Below are positions 3,519 to 29,304 of a stretch of DNA of 32,000 nt, in pieces; the stretch's first letter is position 1, and every line of letters starts with the position of its first letter. The notes below the pieces were generated by a model. It searched no databases and was not told the origin of the DNA. It worked only from the letters and a program-made list of their open reading frames with translations. The stretch comes from an uncultured Gammaproteobacteria bacterium (lineage in GTDB: Bacteria; Patescibacteriota; Microgenomatia; UBA1406; GWC2-37-13), in NCBI GenBank assembly GCA_964629635.1, contig CAZVQS010000002.1, positions 43,644 through 75,643 on the forward strand. The letters are read 5' to 3'. The translations under genes and the position numbers were made by a program.

Positions 3519-4030
3519 AAAGTACACTTGTCCGGTTGCGTGCGTTTGCGCGTGCGAGAGCATATTATCTTCTGATTTTCACGTATATTTTCCATACGGT
3601 ATTGTTTACCGCATGTTCCGTCGGGATACCGGGACGCGTTCATGTATACACGAATACCTCAGGCTCAATGGAACCTTCGGCACCCGCCGGCAGCGCAAGC
3701 CTGGTCCTGATTCAAGATCCGTTTTCGTATGAGGCAGGAGACATCATCGCGTTCCGTACGGATCATGAAACGGTAATCCACCGGCTGCAGGGCGTGCGGG
3801 GCAACAGATACATAACCAAGGGCGACCGCAACGACGCAATCGACCCCGGGCTGCTTGACCCGCGCCGCGTTATCGGTAAAGCGGTTCTGACTATTCCGTT
3901 TGCGGGGGTCTGGATCAATTTCATGAAAGAGCCGTTCGGGAGCGCGCTTTTTCTTGTCCTGCCTGCCGTGTTTTTTATCGTCACCGAGATTACCTGCATT
4001 CTTTTGCCTTACCGGAACCGGTTATCCTGA
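3512..4030 (+). CDS. signal peptidase I, SipW/archaeal-ER type (copy 2)
   Basis: Shows [16 protein letters not shown] and [12 protein letters not shown]. Its ATG at 3512 overlaps the stop of the upstream gene (ATGGTAA). TM segments at both ends. Confidence 0.8.
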
Positions 4031-5994: not shown

Positions 5995-6009
5995 GTTAAG
6001 GTATCTGTA

Positions 6010-6039
6010 ATTATAAAATGCCGCATATGAACTATTCAA
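6010..6039 (-). promoter_or_regulatory. sigma70-type promoter for the thioredoxin/DsbD-like gene
   Basis: On the minus strand: TTGAAT (6039-6034), 18-nt spacer, TATAAT (6015-6010). This leaves 15 nt between the -10 box and the ATG at 5994. Confidence 0.5.
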
Positions 6040-6142
6040 CTGTTTGAAAGGGTCCGATGCAGCCGGGTGCAAAATATAAACCTAATTGATAATTAAACTG
6101 TCCTAAAGGCTACCGAAGAAAATCACCACGGTTACTGTCGTA

Positions 6143-6892
6143 TTATTCTCCTCCCAGCAGTTTGATTGTATACATAATTAGAATTCCCGTGAAAAATATG
6201 CCGAAAGAGGTCAATGATTTTCTCATGTCAGTTTCTTTTCTGATTTCCGGCATAAGATCCGACGCTGCTATATATATAAAACCTCCTGCCGCAAAGGGAA
6301 GAAGATAAGCGGTAATATTTTCAATCCGGAAAGAAAGGAAATATCCAGTCACTCCACCCATAACAGCAGTCAATGCTACCAGGAAATTGGAAATAAGAGC
6401 TTTTTTGCGGCTAAATCCCGAGTAAAGAAGTACGCCAAAATCACCAATTTCCTGAGGTATTTCGTGGAGCGCAATTGCGAAACTGGTAGCTATGCCAAGC
6501 TTAATGTCCATTAAAAAGGTTGAGGCAATGACAAGTCCATCAATAAAATTATGTACGGCGTCCCCAAAAAGATTCATATATCCAAAGGTGTGAACATCAC
6601 AGTGTTTATTATGACAATGACGCCAATGAAGCAGCTTTTCTATCAGAAAGAAGAATACAAAGGACAATAACACTATTAAATACATGTTCCCGGTATCCAG
6701 TTTTTCAGAGGCTTCAGGTAAAAGGTGAATAAAAGCTCCACCCATCAAGGCGCCTGCCGAAAGAGAAATCAGGAATAAAAGAAACCTGGAAAGTGTTTTT
6801 TCTTTCAACGAAAGGGTGAATACGCCTATTAAAGAACCGAGGCTTATTAAAAAATTGGCGGCAACAATATAAAGAAGTTTTTCCATATGCAT
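6143..6892 (-). CDS. ZIP family divalent metal (zinc/iron) transporter, ZupT-like
   Basis: HEIPQEIGDFGVLL motif, His-rich loop HWRHCHNKHCDVH, multi-pass membrane profile. The ATG at 6892 overlaps the upstream stop by one base. Confidence 0.8.
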   Translation of the reverse strand: MHMEKLLYIVAANFLISLGSLIGVFTLSLKEKTLSRFLLFLISLSAGALMGGAFIHLLPEASEKLDTGNMYLIVLLSFVFFFLIEKLLHWRHCHNKHCDVHTFGYMNLFGDAVHNFIDGLVIASTFLMDIKLGIATSFAIALHEIPQEIGDFGVLLYSGFSRKKALISNFLVALTAVMGGVTGYFLSFRIENITAYLLPFAAGGFIYIAASDLMPEIRKETDMRKSLTSFGIFFTGILIMYTIKLLGGE

Positions 6893-7197
6893 CAATGATT
6901 ATGCTTGCCATAGCAAAGCTCGCCCTGTTCAATCCTGATTGCTTTTCCTGAGACAATCGCATGCGCGATTTTTTTCAATGCCCTATTGAGGATTCTGGTA
7001 AAAGTGGATTGGGAAATATTCATTTGTTTGGATGACTCGATCTGATCCAGCTCATCAACTTCGTAAAGTTTCAACGCTTCTAACTCATCCGGTAACAGCA
7101 ATACTTCATCAAGATCCCGCATCGGAATACCTTGAGGTTTAAAATACAATGTGCTGGCTTTAAACCTTAAACAACGGTGTATTACTGGTCTGGGCAT
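6892..7197 (-). CDS. DUF134 (UPF0251) predicted DNA-binding protein
   Basis: MPRP...FKPQGIP N-terminus, followed by the LEALKLYEVDELDQIESSKQMNISQSTFTRILNRALKKIA helix-turn-helix region. Confidence 0.7.
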   Translation of the reverse strand: MPRPVIHRCLRFKASTLYFKPQGIPMRDLDEVLLLPDELEALKLYEVDELDQIESSKQMNISQSTFTRILNRALKKIAHAIVSGKAIRIEQGELCYGKHNH

Positions 7198-7276
7198 ACA
7201 TCGGGAAAATAATTAACAGGAATCCCTACTTAGTTTTTGCACATAAAGATCTTCTAAGCAGGATTTTCTGTCCTTA

Positions 7277-7498
7277 TTATTTCATCTCTGCAATTTCTTT
7301 TTCCACATCTTCAAGTTCTTTCTTTAAATTGCTCACGTAGGCTTCAAGATCATTCTTCGTTGGATTTTTGTCTATCCGATCACAGCATCGCACCATTCTG
7401 CGGCCGAATCCTTGCCCCCTTCCTTTTCCGCATGTTCCCATTCCGCGACCTGTCATCGGTCCTTTTCCCTGCGGTCCGGTTCCGTCTAGATTTGGCAT
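7277..7498 (-). CDS. DUF5320 family small protein
   Basis: N-terminus is MPNLDGTGPQGKGPMTGRGMGTCGKGRGQGFGRR, with a coiled C-terminal tail. A strong SD (GGAGGTG, plus-strand 7507-7513) sits 8 nt from the ATG. Confidence 0.7.
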   Translation of the reverse strand: MPNLDGTGPQGKGPMTGRGMGTCGKGRGQGFGRRMVRCCDRIDKNPTKNDLEAYVSNLKKELEDVEKEIAEMK

Positions 7499-7521
7499 AT
7501 GTATTTCACCTCCTCTCAGTA

Positions 7522-7567
7522 ATTATGAATATGTATTCATAATATAGCGGGGAATGGTAATTGTCAA
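7522..7567 (-). promoter_or_regulatory. promoter plus palindromic operator of the DUF5320-DUF134-ZIP operon
   Basis: On the minus strand: TTGACA (7567-7562), 17-nt spacer, TATTAT (7544-7539). A perfect 10-bp inverted repeat, ATTATGAATA-TG-TATTCATAAT (7522-7543), covers the -10 box and the start region. Confidence 0.55.
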
Positions 7568-7619
7568 GGAGATTCTGTAATTTAGCCCCGGACGTATACC
7601 GCCAGACTAGTCAATCACC

Positions 7620-7718
7620 ATGAAGGTCTTACTGCTCTTTTATGCCGTAATGCGCCTGATCTTGTACGTAAATCAGAGTTGTGAGGGGCCTCTAATTAAA
7701 TTAACGCAACTGAATTAA
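7620..7718 (+). CDS. candidate small ORF (32 aa, hydrophobic N-terminus); weak support
   Basis: Translates to MKVLLLFYAVMRLILYVNQSCEGPLIKLTQLN. No obvious SD. Lies in a relatively GC-rich patch of the island intergenic region. Confidence 0.15.
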   Translation: MKVLLLFYAVMRLILYVNQSCEGPLIKLTQLN

Positions 7719-7728
7719 GGAGTTCTCG

Positions 7729-7794
7729 ATGAAGCAGGCTCACAATTTGTCCAGAGCAATTGAGGGCGTTAGAACCTTTTATGCTCAGATTTAG
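7729..7794 (+). CDS. candidate small ORF (21 aa) with a strong Shine-Dalgarno site
   Basis: AAGGAG (7717-7722), 6-nt spacer, ATG at 7729. Translates to MKQAHNLSRAIEGVRTFYAQI. No recognisable family. Confidence 0.25.
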   Translation: MKQAHNLSRAIEGVRTFYAQI

Positions 7795-7826
7795 TATAGT
7801 AAATAAGATCCAGTTTCAATATCTTC

Positions 7827-7858
7827 TTGACATTCATTATCTTATCTCATAAGATAAT
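7827..7858 (+). promoter_or_regulatory. marR-family gene promoter with a palindromic operator
   Basis: TTGACA (7827-7832), 17-nt spacer, TAAGAT (7850-7855), then 6 nt to the ATG at 7862. A perfect inverted repeat, ATTATCTTAT-CTC-ATAAGATAAT (7836-7858), overlaps the spacer and -10 box. Confidence 0.55.
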
Positions 7859-7861
7859 AGT

Positions 7862-8305
7862 ATGAATACCTCAAAACAAATGATGTTGAATCAATTTATG
7901 CAATCCTTGATGAGGATTCGCCGTATTGCTGAACAGTCATTCATTGTTCCCATAAAAGATGGAAGTGTTACGTTACTTCAAAATCAAGCTCTTCTCCACT
8001 TGAAAGATCATCCAGGTTGTACGGTAGGTGAGCTTTCGGCAAAATTAGGACTTTCATCTTCCTCCGCAGCTCAGCTAATCGAAAGATTAATAAATTTAGA
8101 TGCAATAAAGAAGACGCTAGATGAAGATGATCGTCGAATTACCCACCTCTCACTTACAAAAAAAGGCCATGACCAAACGGAGGTAGCTCACAGTATGTTA
8201 GCAGAGAAAGTTGGGAATGTTTTTTCACAGATGCCTGAGGAGGATTTAAAGGAAGTCGTTCGTATTTTTACCAATTTTCTCAAAAAAATAGAGAAACAGA
8301 AATAG
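7862..8305 (+). CDS. MarR family transcriptional regulator
   Basis: 147 aa with a winged-HTH region TVGELSAKLGLSSSSAAQLIERLINLDAIKK...DDRRITHLSLTKKG. Confidence 0.8.
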   Translation: MNTSKQMMLNQFMQSLMRIRRIAEQSFIVPIKDGSVTLLQNQALLHLKDHPGCTVGELSAKLGLSSSSAAQLIERLINLDAIKKTLDEDDRRITHLSLTKKGHDQTEVAHSMLAEKVGNVFSQMPEEDLKEVVRIFTNFLKKIEKQK

Positions 8306-8306
8306 A

Positions 8307-9245
8307 ATGAAAAAAATAGTAATAATAATATTTCTTTTAATTGTGGGATTATTTGTGATAAGAATGATAATTCTCAAAAAACCCAGCACAGAGATACTGT
8401 ACACGATAATAAAAGAGGACTTGGTAGAAACTGTACAGGTAAGCGGTACATTTAATAAAACTGCATCTGATGAGGAAAAGGCTCTTGCATATCTTAATTA
8501 CCAAAATGCAATAAGTGCTGTTAAAACAAGTCAACAAAACAAACTTGCTGCAGATGCGGCTATGTGGACAAAACAGAAGGCTTTACTAGATGCGCAAAAT
8601 GGCGTTGATTATAAGAATAATAACACTACCAATACTATAACGAAAAAAGACTATACAGATTTGGAGAAATATAGCATCGATGGTACGCTAACTCAGGCAC
8701 AAAAAGATTTTTTAGCATCGGAAACAAAATATAAAGAAGCAGACATTGCTATCGGAGCGGCAAATGCTCAGGTTGCAGCAACACAGATTGCCTATGAAGA
8801 TACATTTCTCAATGAGCCCGTTATATCAGCAGACATCAATGAAATGTATTTGCCACGAATATCTATCGGTCAAAAAACAAAAATAATCTTTGACGCATTT
8901 AATAATCAAACAGTGACGGGACTTGTTAAAAGTATTGATACCATAGGAGCAGTGAAAGGAGGAGTTGTCACATATGAAATAAAGGTTTCACTGGATACAA
9001 TTCCATCCGGGGTACGGGCAAATATGACTGCGCTTATTACGATAGAGACGCTCCGTAAAAACAGTATTCTTTCAGTTCCAAATAGTGCCATTATTGCCAA
9101 AAACAATAAAAGCTATGTTGAACAGATAGTAAAACAAAAGAAAAATGAAGTAGAGGTAAGCACGGGGGTAAAAGGTTTAGTCAAAACTGAAATTATAAAA
9201 GGACTGGGTGAAAAGGATGTGATTGTTGCAAACCCAAATGATTAA
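8307..9245 (+). CDS. HlyD/MacA-like periplasmic adaptor (membrane fusion) protein
   Basis: N-terminal TM segment, long coiled-coil-like central region, C-terminal beta-barrel-like segment. Positioned directly upstream of an FtsX permease and ABC ATPase. Confidence 0.65.
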   Translation: MKKIVIIIFLLIVGLFVIRMIILKKPSTEILYTIIKEDLVETVQVSGTFNKTASDEEKALAYLNYQNAISAVKTSQQNKLAADAAMWTKQKALLDAQNGVDYKNNNTTNTITKKDYTDLEKYSIDGTLTQAQKDFLASETKYKEADIAIGAANAQVAATQIAYEDTFLNEPVISADINEMYLPRISIGQKTKIIFDAFNNQTVTGLVKSIDTIGAVKGGVVTYEIKVSLDTIPSGVRANMTALITIETLRKNSILSVPNSAIIAKNNKSYVEQIVKQKKNEVEVSTGVKGLVKTEIIKGLGEKDVIVANPND

Positions 9246-10521
9246 TAGGTTATTCAAGACAAATAAATCTTTTGAGGTTGGGTTTTTTCTTGCTGTTTCC
9301 GATATTAAACGGAGCAATCCCTGGACTACCGGCTTGATTATTTTTGTAATGATGCTTACGTTTTTTAATATGATTCTCCTGAATGGGATATTGATTGGAC
9401 TTGCTCAAGGAATGACGGGAACGTTCAAACTATACTATGCATCTGATGTGCTCATTACCCCCTCATTAAACAAAAAGAGCATAGAAGATACAAATATGAT
9501 TTTAGCGGTTATTGACAGTTTGCCAACAGTAAAAAATGTTACTGCTCGGTATACCGGTCAGGCAACTCTTGAATACGGGTATCAAACAAAACTTAAGGAA
9601 TCTGATAGTGCAGAAAGCGTGAATTCATTACTAGTAGGGATAAATCCAGAGAAAGAAAATAAAGTAACCCACCTGTCTCAAATGATTGTTGCAGGACAGT
9701 ATCTTGAACCAACTGATATGGATGCGGTAGTTCTTGGATCTGATTTAATTTCAAAATATACAACAGCCAGAGGATCTTCGGAGTCTGATGGGAGTAAGAT
9801 ATTAAAAACCGCAGATGTTGGTTCAAAACTTAGATTGACTGTGAACAATATTCAAAAAGACGTTGTGATTAAGGGAGTTGTAAGTACTAATAATTCGACT
9901 GTTGATAGTCGCATATATATGACAGAAACGGCGGCAAGACAGTTATTTGATAGGAAAGGGCTTAACGTAAACGAAATAGCAATTACACTAACAGACAATT
10001 CGTCTGATGCTGCTGCAAAATCCTATATTAAAAATAATTTGAATGACGCAAGTAATGTGTTAATTCAAACATCAAAAGAAGCAATCCCGAGTGGAATTAG
10101 TCAAATGATTAAAACCTTTACCCTCCTTGGAGTTATGGTAGCTGCAATTGCTCTGTTTGTTGGAGCGATCACTATATTTATAGTGATCTATGTCAATGCA
10201 ATAACTCGACGTAAATTTATTGGGATTCTTAAAGCAGTTGGAGTTCCAAGTAGTGCAATAGAAATTTCCTACATATTTCAGGCTCTTTTCTATGCAATTT
10301 TTGGAATTATTATTGCAAGTATTCTCCTCTTGGGATTTCTCACTCCCTATTTTATTCTGCATCCTATACATTATCCTGTGGGAACGGGATCACTTGCGAT
10401 TACCCTAAATGATGTTTTGACTCGGGCAATTATTTTGTTGATTACCGCCTTTATTTCTGGACTAGTTCCAGCTTGGCTTGTTACGAAGCAAAATACTTTA
10501 GATGCAATTTTAGGAAGATAA
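9223..10521 (+). CDS. ABC transporter permease, FtsX/MacB-like
   Basis: One N-terminal TM segment, a large extracytoplasmic domain, then a C-terminal FtsX-type 3-TM bundle (ITRRKFIGILKAVGVPSSAIE). The start is uncertain: TTG at 9223 with AAGGA upstream, or ATG at 9238. Confidence 0.75.
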   Translation: MLQTQMINRLFKTNKSFEVGFFLAVSDIKRSNPWTTGLIIFVMMLTFFNMILLNGILIGLAQGMTGTFKLYYASDVLITPSLNKKSIEDTNMILAVIDSLPTVKNVTARYTGQATLEYGYQTKLKESDSAESVNSLLVGINPEKENKVTHLSQMIVAGQYLEPTDMDAVVLGSDLISKYTTARGSSESDGSKILKTADVGSKLRLTVNNIQKDVVIKGVVSTNNSTVDSRIYMTETAARQLFDRKGLNVNEIAITLTDNSSDAAAKSYIKNNLNDASNVLIQTSKEAIPSGISQMIKTFTLLGVMVAAIALFVGAITIFIVIYVNAITRRKFIGILKAVGVPSSAIEISYIFQALFYAIFGIIIASILLLGFLTPYFILHPIHYPVGTGSLAITLNDVLTRAIILLITAFISGLVPAWLVTKQNTLDAILGR

Positions 10522-10523
10522 CT

Positions 10524-11195
10524 ATGATTATTGTAAACAATATAGTGAAAAAATTTAAGATGGGTACGGTTGAGAGTATCGTATTAAAAGGAATAAACTT
10601 TACTGTGCCTAAAGGACAGTTTCTTGCAATTACTGGGAGATCAGGATCTGGGAAAAGTACACTTCTCTATCAATTGGGACTTCTAGATCACCCGACTGAA
10701 GGCTCAATCACTATCAATGATGAGGTGGTAACAAACCTGTATGGTTCAAAACGAATTGAATTTCGTCGAAAAAATCTCGGATATATTTTCCAGGATTATG
10801 CAATCCTTCCAACGCTTACTGCTAAGGAAAATGTCATTCTACCTATGATGATGGGAGATGATGCTAAAAATAGCATTGAACAAAGGGCAAAAGAGGCATT
10901 GGAAAAAGTTGGTTTAGAGAAGCAGATTAATAATCTACCTTCTCAACTATCAGGAGGTGAACAGCAGCGAGTAGGTATTGCTCGGGCAATTGCACACAAT
11001 CCTAGTATTATCTTTGCTGACGAGCCAACAGCTAACCTTGATACTGAATCTTCAAAGGTCGTACTAGATATTTTTCTTAAGCTGAATAATGAGGGACAAA
11101 CCATCATCATGGTTACTCATGAACCCGAGTATGCAAAATTAGCAGACCGGATAATTGAAATTAGCGATGGAAAGATAATTTCCGACAAAAAATAG
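10524..11195 (+). CDS. ABC transporter ATP-binding protein (MacB/LolD-like)
   Basis: Walker A GRSGSGKST, signature LSGGEQQR, Walker B IIFADEPT. The ATG at 10524 is preceded by AGGAAG; the longer listed ORF (10473) overlaps the permease. Confidence 0.9.
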   Translation: MIIVNNIVKKFKMGTVESIVLKGINFTVPKGQFLAITGRSGSGKSTLLYQLGLLDHPTEGSITINDEVVTNLYGSKRIEFRRKNLGYIFQDYAILPTLTAKENVILPMMMGDDAKNSIEQRAKEALEKVGLEKQINNLPSQLSGGEQQRVGIARAIAHNPSIIFADEPTANLDTESSKVVLDIFLKLNNEGQTIIMVTHEPEYAKLADRIIEISDGKIISDKK

Positions 11196-11224
11196 GTTGT
11201 TGAGATTTCAATTTAAAATAGGTG

Positions 11225-11545
11225 TCAAGCTTTCATCATCGATAATAACATCTTAAATTGTTTATTTGCTTTAAGGGCGTGAGGTTCACCTGCTGGCATA
11301 TGAATAATTTCTCCTGTTTTAACTTTATTGCAAATTCCAGAGATTGTTATTTCTGCTTCGCCATCAACTATGTATACTAAAGCATCATATGGAGTCTTAT
11401 GTTCACTTAATCCCTGTCCTTGAGCAAATGCAAACAGAGTAATGGTCCCTGAATTATTTTTTAAGATTTCTTTACTAACAATGGATCCTTCTTGATAGCT
11501 TATATGTTGATCGAGGGAAAAATGAAATGTTGATGATTTATTCAT
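11225..11545 (-). CDS. cupin domain protein
   Basis: 106 aa. Cupin core: GLSEHKTPYDALVYIVDGEAEITISG...GEIIHMPAGEPHALKA. Confidence 0.7.
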   Translation of the reverse strand: MNKSSTFHFSLDQHISYQEGSIVSKEILKNNSGTITLFAFAQGQGLSEHKTPYDALVYIVDGEAEITISGICNKVKTGEIIHMPAGEPHALKANKQFKMLLSMMKA

Positions 11546-11643
11546 AAATTAAGTATATCAAACCGAGCAAACTGAATAAGAGGCTTAAATGCTGAAGTAG
11601 TTTATGTCAATATAGATTGTCCTGACGCTCTAAATCAATCAAG

Positions 11644-11726
11644 TCCAGGGGGAGGGATTCGAACCCCCGTAGGCATACGCCAGCAGATTTACAGTCTGCC
11701 CCCGTTGGCCACTTGGGTACCCCTGG
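11644..11726 (-). tRNA. tRNA-Tyr (anticodon GUA), type II with a long variable arm; CCA not encoded
   Basis: Hand-folded minus-strand read: CCAGGGG UA CCC AAGUGGCCAAC GGG G GCAGA CUGUAAA UCUGC UGGCGUAUGCCUAC GGGGG UUCGAAU CCCUC CCCCUGG A. A TGn-TATAAT promoter (hexamer at plus-strand 11736-11741) lies 9 nt upstream of the 5' end. Confidence 0.85.
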
Positions 11727-18855: not shown

Positions 18856-19745
18856 TACTTCACGTTTTCGTCGATCCATCGCACCACGTTTCGCGTGTCA
18901 TTGAACCGGTCTTCGCTTTTGAGGATGACGATGATGAACTGGTGCCCATTTTTTTTGTAGAAACTCACGAGGTTTTCTCCCGCGTTCTCGGTATATCCGG
19001 TCTTGAGTCCGCCGATGCCGTGGATTTCGCCAAGCAGCTGGTTGACGTTGGTAAGGCGGTGGAATCGGGTGAATTCCTCGTCCGCGATTTCGATTTCCTT
19101 GGTGGCCACAAACCGGGCGAGATACTTGTTTTTCAAAAGTTCCCGGGCCGCCACCGCCAGGTCAAGGGGGGTTGTGTACTGGTTCGGGTTATCCAGCCCC
19201 GCCGGGTTTTCGAAATGGGTAGACTGCATGCCGATTTCTTTTGCCTTGTCGTTCATGAGCGTAATGAATTTGTCATACCCGACATTGTCCGCGAACGTGT
19301 ATGCTGCATCGTTTGCCGAATGCACGAGGATACCGTAGAGGAGGTTTTCCGCGCTCATGCGCTCGCCCTGCACAAGGTCCATCACCTGGCCTTCGGTAAA
19401 TGCTTTTTTTACGGTCAGGATATCTTCGGGTTTATAGACATCGTTCACGACGAGGGATGTTATGATCTTGGTAGTGGAGGCGGGGAAAAACCGCTCCCTG
19501 CTGTTGCGCTCGTACACGGGGGTGAATGAGGGAAGGTCGGCAATGTAAACTCCCGCTGCCGTAATATCGGGCGGCGGTGCTTTGTCGACATAGGGAACCG
19601 GATGTATTTTGAACGGAAGGGAAACTTCCTGTTTGCCGAACGCTTCGCGGTTATAGGCGAATATATGGTAATACCACGAGTCGCCCGGATAAAAGAGAAA
19701 AAGGAATGTGAAAAGGACAAACAGGATATGGAATCGGTACTTCAT
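18840..19745 (-). CDS. D-alanyl-D-alanine carboxypeptidase (serine type, S11/PBP5-like)
   Basis: N-terminal TM/signal segment plus the SxxK (ASTTK), SxN (HSAND) and KTG (KTGYT) motifs. Confidence 0.85.
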   Translation of the reverse strand: MKYRFHILFVLFTFLFLFYPGDSWYYHIFAYNREAFGKQEVSLPFKIHPVPYVDKAPPPDITAAGVYIADLPSFTPVYERNSRERFFPASTTKIITSLVVNDVYKPEDILTVKKAFTEGQVMDLVQGERMSAENLLYGILVHSANDAAYTFADNVGYDKFITLMNDKAKEIGMQSTHFENPAGLDNPNQYTTPLDLAVAARELLKNKYLARFVATKEIEIADEEFTRFHRLTNVNQLLGEIHGIGGLKTGYTENAGENLVSFYKKNGHQFIIVILKSEDRFNDTRNVVRWIDENVKYYSLE

Positions 19746-21127
19746 TTATCCTCAGGTTCCTTATCAACATGTAACCCGAGCTCGACGAGCTTTTCCTCAC
19801 GGATCGGGGAGGGGGCATTCATGACCGCGGTTTTGCCGCCCGATGTCATCGGGAATGGAATGACCTCTCGCAGCGAGGGCTCGTTCGTGATGCAGGTGAG
19901 CAGCCGGTCGATGCCCGGCGCGATGCCTCCGTGGGGAGGGGTGCCGTAGGAAAACGCTTCAAGCATATGGCCGAACTGGGATTGGATTTCCTCCTGCCCA
20001 TACCCCATGATTTCAAAAACGGTCTTCAAAACGTCCGGTTCATGGCTTCTGATGCTGCCACCGCCGACCTCATACCCGTTGCAGACCAGATCGTACTGGG
20101 TGGTGAGTATTTTCGGTATGTCGCGTTTGGCAAGGAGCGCTTCCTTGTATTCGGGAAGAGGGGCCGAAAAGGGGTTGTGGGTGAATGTCCAGCCGCCTTC
20201 TTCCGTTTTTTCGAAAAAGGGGAAATCCACAACCCATGCGAATGCCTGGATATTCTGCTTTTTTTCCTCCTCCGTGCGCATGTCGAATTTGTCTGCCCCG
20301 TATTGCTCCATCGCCTGTTTGTAGGTGAACACGGGGAACGGTTTCGTGCGGATCGGGATATCGAGTTTTCCGTATACGTCGATGATCATTCCTTCGATGA
20401 GGTCCATGACGTCTTTCCGTTCCACGAAGCTCATCTCCAGATCAAGCTGCGTGAATTCGCCGTATGCACGGTCGGCGCGAGGATCCTCGTCACGGAAGCA
20501 GCGGGCGATCTGAAAATATTTTTCGAGACCCCCGGCCATAAGGAGCTGCTTGTACTGCTGGGGCGACTGGGGGAGCGCATAGAATTTACCCTTCTGCAGG
20601 CGGGAGGGTACGATGAAGTCGCGCGCCCCTTCAGGCGTCGTTTCGCTCAGGATAGGCGTTTCGATTTCAAGGAACTCATGGCCGAAAAGGTATTCGCGGA
20701 TGAGCTGGATGAACCGGGAACGGAGCGCGATGTTTTTCGCCATGCGGGGTCTTCTCAAGTCAAGGTACCGGTATTTCATGCGGATTTCCTCATCGATCTC
20801 GTATCCGTCGGTGTTGACCGGAAGGGGGAGGGGTTTGGATTTGTTGAGCACAGTAAAAGATCTTCCTTCAATCTCGACCGTTCCGGTCGGCAGCTTCGGA
20901 TTGACGAGCTTTTCCGGCCGTTTTTTCACGAGTCCTTTGATGATGACCGCATCCTCAAGCGACAATGTCTTGAATTCCTCGCCGCCAACGACCTGTACCA
21001 TGCCGCTCCGGTCGCGCAGGTCCAGGAACACGATTTTCTTATGGTCGCGTTTCGTGTTTACCCATCCGTACAGTTCCACTTCCTGTCCGATTTTTTCCGT
21101 TACGTCCTTGATATGGAGTGTTTTCAT
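19742..21127 (-). CDS. aspS: aspartyl-tRNA synthetase, bacterial-type core without the GAD insertion domain
   Basis: The ATG at 21127 (MKTLHIKDV...) is preferred. Shows an OB-fold N-terminus, FRDEDPRADR...EFTQLDLEMSF (motif 2), YGADKFDMR followed after ~12 aa by FAWVVDFPFFE, and PPHGGIAPGIDRL (motif 3). Confidence 0.9.
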   Translation of the reverse strand: MKTLHIKDVTEKIGQEVELYGWVNTKRDHKKIVFLDLRDRSGMVQVVGGEEFKTLSLEDAVIIKGLVKKRPEKLVNPKLPTGTVEIEGRSFTVLNKSKPLPLPVNTDGYEIDEEIRMKYRYLDLRRPRMAKNIALRSRFIQLIREYLFGHEFLEIETPILSETTPEGARDFIVPSRLQKGKFYALPQSPQQYKQLLMAGGLEKYFQIARCFRDEDPRADRAYGEFTQLDLEMSFVERKDVMDLIEGMIIDVYGKLDIPIRTKPFPVFTYKQAMEQYGADKFDMRTEEEKKQNIQAFAWVVDFPFFEKTEEGGWTFTHNPFSAPLPEYKEALLAKRDIPKILTTQYDLVCNGYEVGGGSIRSHEPDVLKTVFEIMGYGQEEIQSQFGHMLEAFSYGTPPHGGIAPGIDRLLTCITNEPSLREVIPFPMTSGGKTAVMNAPSPIREEKLVELGLHVDKEPEDK

Positions 21128-21263
21128 ATTCCCATATGATATACCAAAACACGCCGGTTTTGTATGCCTTTTATGCGATCCTGGTGTTTCGCGGGTGCAT
21201 CCGGATGGCATATTGCACGGGAGCGGCTGACGGGTAAGGAATGTAAGAAACGTAAGTGCGCTC

Positions 21264-21292
21264 TTTACTAAAACGTATTAGTGTGCTAAAAT
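21264..21292 (+). promoter_or_regulatory. extended -10 promoter driving the small ORF/leader RNA
   Basis: TTTACT (21264-21269), 17-nt spacer ending in TGC, TAAAAT (21287-21292), then 6 nt to the ATG at 21299. Confidence 0.5.
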
Positions 21293-21298
21293 AAAAAC

Positions 21299-21379
21299 AT
21301 GAATTCCCGCACGCTTACCATTATCACGTTCAGGCAAGCGGTCCTTTATGGGACGGAAGCGGGGACTTCATGCAGTTGA
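21299..21379 (+). CDS. candidate leaderless small ORF / leader peptide (26 aa)
   Basis: Translates to MNSRTLTIITFRQAVLYGTEAGTSCS. The ATG sits at the leaderless distance from a -10 box. The ORF is embedded in mutually complementary RNA segments upstream of a terminator. Confidence 0.35.
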   Translation: MNSRTLTIITFRQAVLYGTEAGTSCS

Positions 21380-21398
21380 CGACCACTCATGAAAAACC

Positions 21399-21426
21399 AC
21401 CCCGCCTCAAACAAGCGGGGTTTTTT
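21399..21426 (+). terminator. intrinsic terminator hairpin with a T-tract
   Basis: ACCCCGC (21399-21405) pairs with GCGGGGT (21415-21421) across a 9-nt loop, followed by TTTTTT (21421-21426). An A-run (21392-21396) precedes the stem. Confidence 0.7.
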
Positions 21427-21432
21427 AGTACT

Positions 21433-22647
21433 ATGGCAAAACAGGAACAAAAAAGACAACTGGAAACAGCTCCTGCCGGTAACGGCGCAGGACTGGGCAT
21501 ACGCTTTAATGCGGACGATTTGGCGGAGCTGGCTTTGAGGTCGCGGCATGCGGCGCTGTCGCACGGAACCGTGTCCGGGACGGGCGCCATGTCGTTTTCA
21601 AGGCGTTCGGTCCAGGCCGACGGGCAGACCGCAGGTCTCATCAATCAGCTTGAGCAGAGCGGCAGGGCACGGGTGGAGGAGCGTATTCCTTCCCGCAGCG
21701 GCTGCATGGATAGCGGGAACGTAGTCGTGTATCCGAAACGGAACAGGGATAAGGTATCTGTTATTGAAACAGTGGATGCGGATCTGCTTGCACCGATCGC
21801 ACGGCTTTACGGAGAACGTACCGTACCGGTCGATTCGGTGACACTCCTTCCCAACATATCCCCTGACAAGCCCAAAGGTTTGGTTATCGCGCTTGATCCA
21901 AAAGCGGAGAAACCCTGGCTCCGCGTTCCGGCGCTCAACTGGCAGTACGGCCGCGGGCTTTTGGTAACCGCCCTTCGCATGGATACGGACGAGTTTATCG
22001 AACGGAGCGACCTTTTGCTTGCAGGTGCACTTGCCGCTGGAAAGGAAACCGAACCGGGCGAGCTCAAATACCTGCAGTTCGCGTACGATGCGCAGGGGCG
22101 CATGTATATGGTAATGGCGGGCGGCCCGTCCCACCGCGAAACGGACGGCATGGTGCAGGGTATCGTGCAGGCGAAAAAGGCACGTCATGCCCAGGAAATC
22201 CTTGAGGCGCAGAACCAATTCGGCAGAATCAAGCGGACCGGTCTTGCGATGGAACTTGCGCACAGCTTGGGTTTGCCTATAGACGATTTCGTGGCGGACG
22301 CCACCTACATAGAAGCCGATCTTGATGCGGGACTGGTTTTTTCCGGTGCGGCGCAGACAAGCGCCAACGGACTCAAGCCTTTTACCGTCGGCAATTCGCG
22401 CATCATTCTCCATACGGAAGGACAGGGTGTGGTGACTCCGGTCGGCGCAAAAACGGCATCAAACCCCAAAACGGATATGCCTGCGCTTCCGCCGGGCATG
22501 GCCATCGATCCGCCTTCAAAAACCGCGGCAGCGCCTCTTTTCGGAGCGGAAGCCGTGGAAGGGTACATAGGGGCACTTCCCAACCGCATGCAGCTTGAGG
22601 TGCTTGGTCTCGGATATCATACGGACATGCGCCAGGCGCGAAGGTAA
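21433..22647 (+). CDS. orphan hypothetical protein (404 aa), no recognisable domain
   Basis: Long open frame with plausible amino-acid composition. The opposite-strand ORFs are R/C/H-rich shadows. The ATG at 21433 is chosen because the longer listed ORF (21370) runs through the terminator hairpin. Confidence 0.6.
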   Translation: MAKQEQKRQLETAPAGNGAGLGIRFNADDLAELALRSRHAALSHGTVSGTGAMSFSRRSVQADGQTAGLINQLEQSGRARVEERIPSRSGCMDSGNVVVYPKRNRDKVSVIETVDADLLAPIARLYGERTVPVDSVTLLPNISPDKPKGLVIALDPKAEKPWLRVPALNWQYGRGLLVTALRMDTDEFIERSDLLLAGALAAGKETEPGELKYLQFAYDAQGRMYMVMAGGPSHRETDGMVQGIVQAKKARHAQEILEAQNQFGRIKRTGLAMELAHSLGLPIDDFVADATYIEADLDAGLVFSGAAQTSANGLKPFTVGNSRIILHTEGQGVVTPVGAKTASNPKTDMPALPPGMAIDPPSKTAAAPLFGAEAVEGYIGALPNRMQLEVLGLGYHTDMRQARR

Positions 22648-24051: not shown

Positions 24052-25730
24052 TTGAGTTTTCCCCGAAGAGTCTCCCTGCCGTTCCAGCGGTTGATGTCCA
24101 GGTTAAAGACCGCCCGGAGCTTCTGCCCTTTGGCGATATCCCCGTAGTCGTTCGCTTTGAAGAACGAAATGAACTCCATGGGAAACGAGCTTCCCTGAGC
24201 ATCCTTCACCATCAGGCGCACGTGTTCGTTTTTGCGGCCGAACAGTTTTTTCTCAAGTACCACCACATCGCTCAGGAATAACGGATGCGGATTCCCCATT
24301 CCGAAAGGCGCAAGGGTTTCGATCCTTTTTGCAAGGGGCATGCGCAGCTTGGAAAGGGGAATGAGCATATCCGCCTCGATGACCTTTTCGAGGTCCTCTT
24401 CCCTGAGGAGTTTTTTTGCGGAAGCGGTCACTTTCTTGAGGAACGCCTCCCGCTTATCGTCCTTCAGGGAAAATCCCGCCGCAAGCATATGGCCGCCGAC
24501 GCTTATCAGATATGTGTCAAGCGAACGGAGAAAATCGGTTATGTGGAATTTGTTTACGGAACGGGCGGACCCTTTCCAGAATCCGTCGCTTTTCGTCATG
24601 ACGATCGTGGGACGGGAATATTTTTCGGTGATTTTGGATGCGATAAGGCCGATGATGCCTTCATTCCATTCGGTTGAAGAAAGGGTGATGACGAGAGGAA
24701 GTGTCTGGTCCTTGAGGAGCATTGCCTCAACCATATCCTTGGCCTGTTTCACGGCAATCGTAACAAGGTCCTGCCGGTCCCGGTTTGTGCCTGCCACCCG
24801 GGAGGCAAGGTCATGCGCCTGGCGGTCGTTGTGGGTGCACAGGAGCCTGAGTGCGTCGATCGCATGTTCGAGCCTTCCCACTGCGTTGATGCGGGGGGCG
24901 ATGACGAATCCGATTTCGTAGGGGGTGATTGTCTTGTCCGATATGCCGGCCTCCTTCATGATATGGATAATGCCGCGGCGGCGCAGCGTAGTGAACGCCT
25001 TGAGCCCGTGGTAAACGATCCCGCGCGCCGGCCCGACCAGCGGAACCAGGTCTGCAATAGTCCCGATCGCTGCCAGGCTCAGGTAGTCGCACTCGAAATA
25101 CCCGTTCAGTTTTTCCCGGTTGGCGGGACTTTCGGAGTCGAAGTTTCCGGCAATTTCCTTGGAGAAAAAGTACGATACCGCCGAGCCGGAAAGGGCGGGA
25201 ATATGGAAGATGGCCTCCGCATCTGTCGGGGGATGAGCGGGTTTGAGGTGGTGGTCTGTGACGATAACTTTTATGCCGAGTGATTTTGCGTATGCGATCT
25301 CCTTCGTCCCGCTTATTCCGTGATCGACACTGATGATGAGACCCGGATCATATTCCTTTTTCACCCGGTCGATTCCCTTCACCGAAAAGCCGTACCCTTC
25401 CTGTTTTCGGTGGGGCACATAGGGCATGACTTTGAACCCCAGCAGGTGAAGCGTTTCCCACAGGATGGTGCCTCCGGTGATGCCGTCGGCGTCATAGTCC
25501 GTATATACAACAATCATGCGGCCCGCATCTTTCATTTCACGAAGCACGGCAATAACTGTTTTGATCTCTTTATCGTACTTGAAGTCCTTGAGGGTGATTT
25601 CGCGCGGATGGGGAGGATGCATAAACTGCGCAACGTCCGTTATGTTCCGGTTTCGCAGGATCGTATCAACGATATCCTGGTCCGTAATTTTGTCGTCCGC
25701 CCTGAACTCTTTTTTCCACGTGATTTTCAT
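24030..25730 (-). CDS. recJ: single-stranded-DNA-specific exonuclease RecJ
   Basis: 566 aa. DHH motifs: YTDYDADGITGG, ISVDHG, VTDHH. DHHA1-type GGHMLAAG. C-terminal OB-like region. Confidence 0.9.
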   Translation of the reverse strand: MKITWKKEFRADDKITDQDIVDTILRNRNITDVAQFMHPPHPREITLKDFKYDKEIKTVIAVLREMKDAGRMIVVYTDYDADGITGGTILWETLHLLGFKVMPYVPHRKQEGYGFSVKGIDRVKKEYDPGLIISVDHGISGTKEIAYAKSLGIKVIVTDHHLKPAHPPTDAEAIFHIPALSGSAVSYFFSKEIAGNFDSESPANREKLNGYFECDYLSLAAIGTIADLVPLVGPARGIVYHGLKAFTTLRRRGIIHIMKEAGISDKTITPYEIGFVIAPRINAVGRLEHAIDALRLLCTHNDRQAHDLASRVAGTNRDRQDLVTIAVKQAKDMVEAMLLKDQTLPLVITLSSTEWNEGIIGLIASKITEKYSRPTIVMTKSDGFWKGSARSVNKFHITDFLRSLDTYLISVGGHMLAAGFSLKDDKREAFLKKVTASAKKLLREEDLEKVIEADMLIPLSKLRMPLAKRIETLAPFGMGNPHPLFLSDVVVLEKKLFGRKNEHVRLMVKDAQGSSFPMEFISFFKANDYGDIAKGQKLRAVFNLDINRWNGRETLRGKLNQIEKSS

Positions 25731-27813: not shown

Positions 27814-29268
27814 TTATAGGATACATTTTACCACATCACCTACTCGAATGTCAAGGGGAGGAGAGAAAATCATACCTGATTCTTGGTCCTTTTTGACCTC
27901 CTGAACCTTCTTTGCCCTGACCTGGAGCGATACGAGGCGGGTTTTTCCTATAAGATTATTGCTTCGATACAATTGCAGGCTGTCACCAGCATTGATTTTC
28001 CCCTTGAGGATCTTCATGCCGAATACGCGTTCTCCCTCAATCTGGAACGAGGCTACCACCTTTGCTTCACCCTTCAGGCTCTTTTCCTGTTCTTCCTTTT
28101 CCTGAAGCAGGTCCGCAACCTCATTAAGCTCGTCAAGAAGTTCGTAAATAATGCCGTAGGTCTTAATGATCACTTTTTCCTGCTTCGCCAGGTCCTTGGT
28201 CTCCGGATCGGGTTTCACGTTGAAACCGATGACGATAGCCTTGCTTGTTTTAGCGAGGAAAATATCGGACTTATGGATGTCGCCGACTGCGCTCAAAAGG
28301 ATATCCACGTTCGTGTTGCGCATGAGTGCGGCGTTGATGGCCTCAAGGGAGCCTTGGGAATCGGACTTGATGACGAGCGCAAGCTTCTTTTCCACTTTCG
28401 GCGCCGCAAGGATGGACGCAAGGTCAAACTTGCCTTTCTGGTCCTGGTTGACGGGAGCGGCGGCGGCCTGAGCCTGCACCGGTTCGTTTGCGATGATCGA
28501 GCCCACTTCCGGAGTCTGCTCGAATCCGAGCAGTTCAAACGGGGTTGAGGGTGATACGGTTTTCAGCTGGATGCCAAGATCGCTGATCATGGAGCGGATA
28601 CGGGCTTTTTTGTCCTGTGCGTACACGGTGTCGCCTACCTTCAGGGTGCCGTTTTTGAGGATTACGCTCAAAACGATACCGCGCCGGTCTTTTTTGGTTT
28701 CGATGATGTATGCCTGGGGAGCGGCTTTCGGATCATATTTGAGTTTCTTGTCGGATGCGACAAAAAGAATGGTTTCGAGTAGATCGGGGACCCCTTTTCC
28801 GGTTTTGGCCGATATGGGCACGACCGGTACGTTCCCGCCTTTTCCTTCGACCATCACTTCATGCTTGAGCAAGTCGTTTTTCACTTTTTCCGGGTTCACG
28901 TCGGGCAGGTCCATCTTGTTGAGGACTACGATGAAGGGAACTCCCGCAGCTTTGATATGGGAGATGGACTCAACCGTCTGGGGCATGAGCGAGTCATGCA
29001 CGTCGACGATGAGGAGCGCCACGTCCGCGACATGCGCGCCGCGTGCGCGAAGCAGGGAAAACGCTTCGTGTCCGGGGGTATCGATGAAGGTGATGCGGTC
29101 CGTATCGTATCCCTTGATCTTGGTTGCCACTTCGTAAGCGCCTATTTTCTGGGTGATGCCGCCGTGTTCGCCACTGGCGATGCGCGACTTCCTGATGAAG
29201 TCAAGGAGCGTGGTTTTGCCATGGTCAACATGGCCTAATATGGCGACAACAGGCGGTCGTGGCTGCAT
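27814..29268 (-). CDS. infB: translation initiation factor IF-2, minimal form beginning at the G domain
   Basis: 484 aa. Starts MQPRPPVVAILGHVDHGKTTLLD and continues with DTPGHEAF and NKMD. Only 36 nt separate it from the nusA stop. Confidence 0.9.
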   Translation of the reverse strand: MQPRPPVVAILGHVDHGKTTLLDFIRKSRIASGEHGGITQKIGAYEVATKIKGYDTDRITFIDTPGHEAFSLLRARGAHVADVALLIVDVHDSLMPQTVESISHIKAAGVPFIVVLNKMDLPDVNPEKVKNDLLKHEVMVEGKGGNVPVVPISAKTGKGVPDLLETILFVASDKKLKYDPKAAPQAYIIETKKDRRGIVLSVILKNGTLKVGDTVYAQDKKARIRSMISDLGIQLKTVSPSTPFELLGFEQTPEVGSIIANEPVQAQAAAAPVNQDQKGKFDLASILAAPKVEKKLALVIKSDSQGSLEAINAALMRNTNVDILLSAVGDIHKSDIFLAKTSKAIVIGFNVKPDPETKDLAKQEKVIIKTYGIIYELLDELNEVADLLQEKEEQEKSLKGEAKVVASFQIEGERVFGMKILKGKINAGDSLQLYRSNNLIGKTRLVSLQVRAKKVQEVKKDQESGMIFSPPLDIRVGDVVKCIL

Positions 29269-29304
29269 AGACTAAAAAATAAACTTATCCCCAAGCCGCA
29301 CGCG

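Follow-up and report, generated by a model that had tools for sequence, protein, structure and literature searches.

In a 32,000-nucleotide (nt) stretch of contig CAZVQS010000002.1 (positions 43,644 to 75,643 of the forward strand; GenBank assembly GCA_964629635.1), deposited as an uncultured Gammaproteobacteria bacterium and placed by GTDB within the Patescibacteriota (Microgenomatia; UBA1406; GWC2-37-13), we identified a short leader element which we interpret, with moderate confidence, as a ribosome-dependent (leader-peptide) transcription attenuator gating the gene downstream of it. The whole stretch is referred to below as the window, and all coordinates are counted from its first nucleotide unless a related locus is named. 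The element sits between the divergent aspS gene, encoding aspartyl-tRNA synthetase (AspRS), and a fast-evolving orphan gene of 404 amino acids (aa; Table 1). An earlier note, made from the letters of the window alone, had described a promoter, a 26-codon open reading frame (ORF), four complementary segments followed by T6, and the 404-aa ORF, all of which are present where the note placed them. It had also proposed an attenuator logic in which segment 1 pairs with segment 2, segment 2 with segment 3, and segment 3 with segment 4, and this logic is borne out by the recurrence and co-variation of the segments, the terminator and the ORF across related loci. A 5' short ORF, co-varying 1:2, 2:3 and 3:4 pairings, a stop codon positioned at segment 2 and a terminator directly adjoining the next gene are together the signature of ribosome-dependent attenuation.

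The RNA is predicted to adopt alternative pairings, namely 1:2 (the helix P1, enclosing hairpins P2 and P3), 2:3 (the antiterminator, with hairpin P4 at its apex) and 3:4 (the terminator with its U-tract). The 134-nt RNA folds at -43.8 kcal/mol, compared to -32.1 +/- 3.3 kcal/mol for shuffled sequences (z = -3.57; 0 of 200 shuffles were as stable). The terminator comprises a 6-7-bp GC stem with a hairpin free energy of -10.8 kcal/mol, and its T-run extends to 21426, leaving, as the note had also reported, 6 nt before the orphan ATG at 21433. When segment 4 was left out of the folding, the antiterminator was the minimum free energy (MFE) structure in the window (-33.1 versus -30.9 kcal/mol), and was preferred more clearly in the closest related locus, L001 (-36.0 versus -28.6). 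When a modelled ribosome footprint was moved along the ORF codon by codon, it masked segment 2 from codon 17 onwards; equilibrium folding under such masks was too noisy to delimit a stall window, as 1:4 pairing and near-equal energies confuse the MFE. The terminator hairpin also scores as a terminator on the minus strand (21391-21421, tail GGTTTTTC), a reading that we rejected as probably incidental, given that this T-run is not conserved among relatives.

From the computed sequence parts, conservation, covariation and ORF statistics, we infer a transcription start, translation of the ORF, termination and a direction of the switch as follows. A constitutive sigma70-type promoter would start the RNA at or next to the ATG of the 26-codon ORF, and a 70S ribosome would load directly on the 5' end without a leader. 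The ORF would carry this ribosome through segment 1, P2, P3 and segment 2 to a stop codon lying inside P4. A ribosome at codon 17 or later, or at the stop codon, would cover segment 2, such that segments 3 and 4 pair and transcription terminates about 6 nt before the orphan gene. A ribosome delayed within approximately codons 1-16 would instead disrupt P1 and leave segment 2 free to pair with segment 3 before segment 4 is made, resulting in read-through. Segment 4, which is G-rich, and the U-tract would then also be freed, immediately ahead of the orphan ATG. Most likely, the signal is not a particular amino acid but how translation advances along the leader, under the influence of starvation, uncharged tRNA or inhibition of the ribosome.

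Table 1. Features of the leader element and its flanking genes in the window.
Feature	Position	Strand	Remarks
-35 hexamer TTTACT	21264..21269	+	from promoter scan; TTTACA or TTGACA in 17 of 21 sequence types
Extended -10 TGCTAAAAT	21284..21292	+	17-nt spacer from the -35; invariant relative to the nearest relative
Leader ORF, 26 codons plus TGA (MNSRTLTIITFRQAVLYGTEAGTSCS)	21299..21379	+	stop codon 21377-21379; homologs of 25-28 codons in L165, L166, L167, L170, L173
Segment 1 UCCCGC, 5' strand of P1 (anti-antiterminator)	21305..21310	+	within ORF codons 3-4
P2 hairpin (CGCUUACC...GGCAAGCG)	21312..21340	+	predicted by folding; inside ORF
P3 hairpin GUCC-UUUAUG-GGAC	21341..21354	+	encodes V-L-Y-G-T; found by RNAalifold in all 6 close sequences
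Segment 2 GCGGGG	21359..21364	+	3' strand of P1, or 5' strand of antiterminator
P4 hairpin UUCAUG-c-AGU ... ACU-CAUGAA	21367..21393	+	apical part of antiterminator; contains the stop codon
Intrinsic terminator	21399..21426	+	segment 3 (A)CCCCGC 21399-21405 (core CCCCGC 21400-21405); loop 21406-21414; segment 4 GCGGGG(U) 21415-21421 (core GCGGGG 21415-21420); T-run (T6) 21421-21426
404-aa orphan gene, putative regulated gene	21433..22647	+	ATG 6 nt past the T-run
aspS, aspartate--tRNA ligase (bacterial-type)	19742..21127	-	NCBIfam NF001750, E = 3e-182; context, outside the RNA

A family of related leaders beside aspS

Loci for comparison were fetched by way of AspRS, as genome contigs, metagenome contigs and contigs encoding closer AspRS homologs, and are denoted here by L numbers. 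Among these Patescibacteria contigs, the architecture was found in 21 distinct sequence types (the window and 20 others). Each combines a promoter of the sigma70 type with a short ORF, four segments complementary to one another, the apical hairpin P4 and an intrinsic terminator. The metagenome scan with AspRS gave no close relatives (best match 62% identity), and the close relatives came from a protein search and contig look-ups. A first covariance model (R1, built from the window and L001) returned only terminator-like matches in the 160 aspS loci first fetched and recovered the closer relatives fetched later, while the diverse members were found by hand and through custom scans. In 19 of the 21 sequence types, the cassette is found within ~140-510 nt of where aspS begins and is encoded on the other strand. 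A strict architecture scan requiring the terminator, segment 2, segment 1 and an ATG ORF returned 14 matches in 1.03 Mb searched on both strands, 11 of them in the 650 nt upstream of aspS and on the opposite strand, a zone corresponding to ~5% of the search space. Ancestrally, the genes appear to have been arranged as recJ(->), (<- variable ORF <- leader), aspS(->).

Close relatives, with AspRS 77-86% identical to that of the window, share a TTTACA-17-TAAAAT/TATAAT promoter, an ATG 7-10 nt past the -10 and an ORF of 25-28 codons, and also carry P1, P3, P4 and the CCCCGC/GCGGGG terminator. Distant members (AspRS 52-78% identical) keep the design with differing segment sequences. In L069, L076, L080, L162 and L006, segments 1 to 4 read UCUCC or CCUCC, GGGAGG or GGGGGG, CCUCCC, and GGGAGG; in L089 and L091 they read CUUCCU(A), (U)AGGGAG(A), UCUCCCU and AGGGAGA; and in L005, L010 and L040, segments 2 to 4 read GGCGG-U-GNNGU, ACNNC-CCGCC and GGCGGG. 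Further segment variants occur in L012, L015, L097 and L174. It was also observed that in the AT-rich lineages (L076, L080, L069, L162 and L006) segments 2 and 4 correspond to the Shine-Dalgarno consensus GGGAGG, with segments 1 and 3 mimicking the anti-Shine-Dalgarno CCUCC, in place of which the GC-rich lineage of the window has GCGGGG/CCCCGC. In L080, L069 and L089, a start codon follows 6-7 nt after segment 4 and the U-tract.

Relative to the syntenic contigs L001-L003, which carry an 84%-identical orphan gene and represent the closest relative, the promoter and RNA are ~88-93% identical, compared to ~55% for the intergenic DNA just upstream. A compensatory change in L001, from A21374-U21387 to G-C, supports P4 and argues against an outer extension of helix 1:2 through ATGAA and TTCAT. 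Of the 1:2 helix described in the earlier note, the inner part, P1, holds; the outer part is not supported and competes with P4. Across the family, segment 3 pairs more stably with its own upstream region than with swapped partners (duplex mean -13.7 versus -10.7 kcal/mol; permutation p = 5e-5), consistent with 2:3 pairing, and segment 2 with its own 5' region likewise outperforms swapped partners (p = 0.004), consistent with 1:2 pairing. In an alignment of eight close sequences made to the covariance model, and hence leaning towards the structure of that model, 88.8% of cells were paired and 19 of 32 pairs were changed on both sides; none of 500 shuffles reached any of these measures, and sliding the partner by 1-3 columns gave only 32-46% paired. 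Within this alignment P1 was 90.7% paired with 3 pairs changed on both sides, P3 was 100% paired, and P4 was 81.5% paired with 7 pairs changed on both sides. On a plain MAFFT alignment RNAalifold finds only P3 and the terminator, as P1 shifts register and P4 varies in length.

The individual helices differ in how they are maintained. The terminator is found in all family members, with stem pairs that are invariant or nearly so in close relatives and that read CCUCCC/GGGAGG or UCUCCCU/AGGGAGA in other lineages. Per-sequence folding gave P1 strands of UCCCGC/GCGGGG, CCCGCAA/UUGCGGG, CACCCAA/UUGGGGUG, GGAUACCC/GGGUAUUCC and GUCC-A-CCCC/GGGG-C-GGAC. P2 is kept in L001 and is represented by loosely equivalent hairpins in the other close relatives, with distant members having none, and a P4-equivalent hairpin of differing sequence occurs in most members.

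The leader ORF and competing explanations

The leader promoter is the sole sigma70-like match in 20800-22000, and TAAAAT or TATAAT boxes equivalent to its -10 are present in L165, L166, L167, L170 and L173. The ORF opens 6 nt past the -10, and as this ATG at 21299 falls at the predicted +1, the mRNA would be leaderless. In 12 members the start codon lies 6-11 nt past the -10, which predicts a leaderless start. The earlier note had placed a small ORF at the transcription start, and this geometry matches that of real genes in the window, including recJ (TACAAT+6+ATG), the hydrogenase small subunit (TAGAAT+6+ATG), aspS (TATCAT+8+ATG) and rmuC (TATCAT+9+ATG), whose starts at 25730, 17721, 21127 and 25815, respectively, are without a Shine-Dalgarno sequence. 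As several window genes that lack a Shine-Dalgarno sequence have a -10-like box 6-9 nt ahead of the ATG, leaderless initiation looks normal for this organism, and the leader family provides further evidence that it is probably common in this lineage. In L005, a public Roizmanbacteria contig, a run of N between aspS and the leader (3884-3932) leaves the promoter region only partly readable.

An ATG ORF of 14-32 codons was identified in 19 of the 21 sequence types, the others being L162, with GTG, and L001, with none. ORF presence was scored as an ATG ORF of at least the observed length ending in the 75 nt before the terminator; against dinucleotide shuffles each of 16 members gave P = 0.03-0.4, for a combined Fisher p of 3.7e-5, or 2.5e-4 counting the close family once. 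In every member with an ORF, the stop codon lies from 3 nt before to ~20 nt after segment 2. Within the close family the single indel in the ORF is 3 nt long, and differences at the three codon positions number 75:64:89, a weak coding signature; the close-relative peptides are MKSYQDNQFNPIIVACVLTRTEARGD (L173), MNTQNYAIIMFRSTVLLRTCVGVVHYE (L166), MDTRMFHALMFQAIVLNRTGGGVFHMI (L165), MNTRNWNCIRLQLMVLYRTRCGNNV (L170) and MSTPNYQLTFIHVAMVLAWAKSGADPMI (L167). These data bear on one alternative, in which the element is an ordinary promoter and 5' untranslated region with chance hairpins and a chance ORF, or a terminator left from another transcript. GC-rich hairpins followed by T-runs are common, and single-ORF probabilities against shuffles are unremarkable, but 21 sequence types share the complete architecture, with covariation and with a strong concentration at a single genomic position, and since both flanking genes are divergent no upstream transcript needs a terminator here. 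We therefore regard this alternative as highly improbable.

Several observations nevertheless weigh against a leader-peptide attenuator. The closest relative, represented by three independent contigs (L001-L003), has AGG in place of the ATG and no other canonical start, and keeps the whole RNA and an intact orphan gene. It may be speculated that L001, having lost its ATG, reads through constitutively, which would reconcile the intact orphan gene with attenuation. The start codon of L162 likewise departs from ATG. Furthermore, the peptide sequence is weakly constrained, and its best-kept stretch, V-L-x-R-T, coincides with hairpin P3; as L167 keeps this hairpin with the encoded residues changed from R-T to W-A, part of the apparent peptide conservation is RNA conservation. 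No codon run for any one amino acid recurs across the family. The equilibrium energies of terminator and antiterminator are close, and the ribosome-free default state is ambiguous. Finally, the element stays beside aspS and not beside any one downstream gene family, so that a purely cis-regulatory role does not explain the linkage.

The earlier note had pointed to codons 5-10, T-L-T-I-I-T, in connection with a trp/thr-type attenuator. Sensing of threonine and isoleucine is not supported: these codons are not conserved (relatives have N-Y-A-I-I-M, M-F-H-A-L-M, N-W-N-C-I-R and N-Y-Q-L-T-F), and the downstream genes are unrelated orphans. The comparison of homologous regions that the note suggested yields covariation of the RNA and no conserved Thr/Ile codon run. 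In the family as a whole, enrichment is confined to Cys (4.9x) and Asn (1.9x), with Thr at 1.5x and Ile at 1.2x background and both Asp (0.24x) and Glu depleted; the Cys excess is attributable to UGC-GGG at segment 2. Sensing of Asp or Asn, suggested by the proximity of aspS, was discounted in light of the Asp depletion, the lack of a run of either residue, and the location of aspS on the other strand. A rare-codon cluster was similarly rejected, as only AGG-CAA (codons 12-13) is moderately rare and it is not conserved. The leader peptides had no match to known leader or arrest peptide families. As L167 retains P3 but not the residues of the best-kept peptide stretch, the peptide sequence itself is probably not the sensor.

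A second alternative is a riboswitch or protein-binding leader, in which the P1-P2-P3 junction binds a metabolite or protein that stabilises P1, the terminator forms, and the ORF is incidental. Such a three-way junction had also been envisaged in the earlier note, and it stands insofar as the close family retains P1 and P3 well, and P2 loosely. P1 shares a strand with the antiterminator, a layout typical of OFF riboswitches, and both the retention of the RNA in L001 without an ATG and of P3 in L167 with changed residues would be expected of an RNA-based sensor. However, the nucleotides of the junction and loops vary even between close relatives, such that there is no conserved aptamer core, and distant members possess only a short 1:2 hairpin with a 4-11-nt loop. 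The downstream genes share no function, and conservation of the ORF exceeds chance, as does that of its start geometry and of the position of its stop codon. An Rfam scan, which the note had proposed, returned no family at the gathering threshold near the element, and none of relevance in four related loci, a permissive scan included. Its best matches were the sub-threshold Thr_leader (RF00506, 17.1 bits against a threshold of 55), Trp_leader (RF00513, 16.1 against 41) and Leu_leader (RF00512, 13.2 against 50), in alignments that cover the terminator only. We consequently consider a riboswitch improbable. A T-box leader, considered owing to the neighbouring tRNA synthetase gene, was rejected since the element lies on the opposite strand to aspS, with its strand fixed by the orientation of the T-run in relatives, and has no T-box match; readings as signal recognition particle RNA, 6S RNA or a tRNA-like element were rejected on structure, strand and the Rfam results.

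The main rival to attenuation is a stand-alone small RNA or small-protein gene, in which the ~128-nt terminated transcript, the ~26-aa peptide, or both, are the functional product. Such a gene could be kept by aspS for its own sake or for a role linked to aspS and recJ, through promoter competition or antisense read-through into recJ, with the downstream orphans expressed only by leaky termination; it could also coexist with attenuation, as for trpL in Sinorhizobium. The constant partner of the cassette is indeed aspS: in many lineages the cassette occupies the gap that separates the 3' end of recJ from the start of aspS, and is followed by unrelated ORFs. It possesses its own strong promoter and its own terminator. 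Dual-function attenuator RNAs and peptides also provide a precedent (PMC6614838, PMC7298713). Moreover, just upstream of aspS in L166 (~1430-1440), L167 (~2462-2472), L170 (~2462-2472) and L173 (~1462-1472), the -35 box of the leader promoter overlaps that of the aspS promoter on the opposite strand (TTTACAAG / CTTGTAAA), an arrangement that suggests competing back-to-back promoters. In the window, by contrast, the two promoters are ~100 nt apart and do not overlap. A stand-alone gene would have no need for segments 2 and 3 to match or for the stop codon to fall at segment 2, but both features are conserved. The peptide, in turn, is poorly conserved and belongs to no matched peptide family. 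The cassette is also absent in two close relatives, L169, in which a prs-like gene is directly divergent from aspS, and L172, in which recJ and aspS are 48 nt apart, and is therefore dispensable for aspS. On this evidence we judge a stand-alone gene to be unlikely, and favour a leader-peptide attenuator.

The orphan gene and its neighbourhood

Pfam, NCBIfam, PHROG and PADLOC gave no match for the 404-aa orphan, a search of 5.8 billion proteins yielded a single homolog cluster, and its AlphaFold model was unusable (predicted local distance difference test score of 30.6). Homologs in L166, L167 and L001 are 31-84% identical. An upstream in-frame ATG at 21370 would lengthen the ORF to 425 aa, but two 1-nt indels in L001-L003 put this codon out of frame, and the start was accordingly assigned to 21433. 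In the close family 3-15 nt separate the T-run from the downstream ATG, leaving no room for a promoter of its own, and the orphan gene must therefore depend on read-through. No homology was detected between the downstream ORFs of distant members. Following the orphan is a ribose-phosphate-pyrophosphokinase-like gene with its own -10-like box, and then the convergent recJ.

Within the lineage of the window, the orphan family is only 31-43% identical where the adjacent AspRS is 83-85% identical. The orphan is replaced by unrelated genes of 206 and 207 aa in L165 and L170, and is absent in L169 and L172 (orphan or replacement gene coordinates: L166, 46-1263; L167, 1103-2293; L165, 51-671; L170, 1677-2300). 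The orphan locus is hypervariable. The best genome matches of the window AspRS are from Patescibacteria (among them Roizmanbacteria, Gottesmanbacteria and Curtissbacteria) at no more than 76% identity, from which we conclude that the window belongs to a Microgenomates-like member of this group. Close AspRS homologs (e.g. L167 2501-4345, P0006), many of ~614-626 aa, include some with an inserted PF04073 (YbaK-like tRNA_edit) domain; the window AspRS, at 461 aa, is without this insert.

Two further features of the window were noted. The region 6000-11726 is a low-GC island (36-40% versus ~52% elsewhere) adjoining a tRNA-Tyr gene (11643-11726, minus strand) and encoding a ZIP transporter, a MarR regulator and an HlyD-like/FtsX/ABC efflux set, which looks horizontally acquired. 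The gene for translation initiation factor 2 (IF-2; 27814-29268, minus strand) is unusually short, at 484 aa, and its start context (29269-29285, TTTTTTAGTCTATG) closely resembles that of the orphan gene (21421-21435, TTTTTTAGTACTATG); this shared context may represent a U-rich internal initiation context.

Implications and relation to known attenuators

Gene regulation in the Patescibacteria, or Candidate Phyla Radiation (CPR), is almost unexplored, and in the literature that we searched no attenuator or leader peptide has been reported for these organisms. A conserved, sequence-definable attenuator family would give a first means of learning how these ultra-small bacteria, which depend on hosts, sense their translational or nutritional state. 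It would also provide a marker for a hypervariable orphan-gene locus and, for the genetic tools under development in this group, a naturally occurring terminator/antiterminator part. The mechanism itself is textbook, limiting the surprise. A wider proposal, which we put forward tentatively and hold to be possible rather than probable, is that a Microgenomatia-wide cassette between recJ and aspS acts as an amino-acid-independent sensor of translation status, with a leaderless micro-ORF attenuator turning on fast-evolving, lineage-specific genes when ribosomes slow, for example in a symbiont starved of host-derived amino acids, and with the terminated RNA or peptide, or back-to-back promoters, coupling this response to aspS and recJ expression.

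The window leader matches no curated family. Like the classical attenuators of Escherichia coli (trp, thr, his, leu and ilv; RF00513, RF00506, RF00512), it combines a short ORF with 1:2, 2:3 and 3:4 pairings, a terminator just before the first structural gene, and a stop codon that lets a terminating ribosome cover segment 2. In contrast to these, it lacks one defining feature of the amino-acid attenuator class, the cognate codon run, and precedes an orphan gene rather than a biosynthetic enzyme. Its ORF also runs through segment 2 into a fourth hairpin and has an apparently leaderless start, in a Patescibacterium host. For such starts there is precedent in the 14 predicted leaderless leader-peptide attenuators of Deinococcus deserti (PMC4007540) and the leaderless polycysteine short ORFs of mycobacteria (bioRxiv 10.1101/834739), in which a sensory ORF similarly occupies the 5' end of the transcript without a Shine-Dalgarno sequence, and the position of the ribosome decides the fate of the downstream gene. 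The mycobacterial ORFs act on translation, by unmasking a ribosome-binding site, whereas the window leader has a terminator; compared to both systems, it also has no residue run, and its aspS lies on the opposite strand.

The trpL attenuator of Sinorhizobium meliloti gives rise to a trans-acting RNA, rnTrpL, and a peptide, peTrpL (PMC6614838, PMC7298713). While there is no sequence similarity to the window leader and no evidence for a trans target of the latter, a terminated RNA and peptide with functions of their own could explain conservation of the leader independent of the downstream gene. Stress- and antibiotic-responsive ribosome-mediated attenuators include the Bacillus subtilis bmrCD leader (PMC4191407) and the mef/mel leader (PMC4335068). 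These control known efflux and resistance genes via Shine-Dalgarno-led ORFs, whereas nothing ties genes of the type downstream of the window leader to antibiotics. Like the window leader, however, they possess no amino-acid-specific codon run, and, as we propose for the window leader, stalling turns the terminator to the antiterminator, with translation status as the signal.

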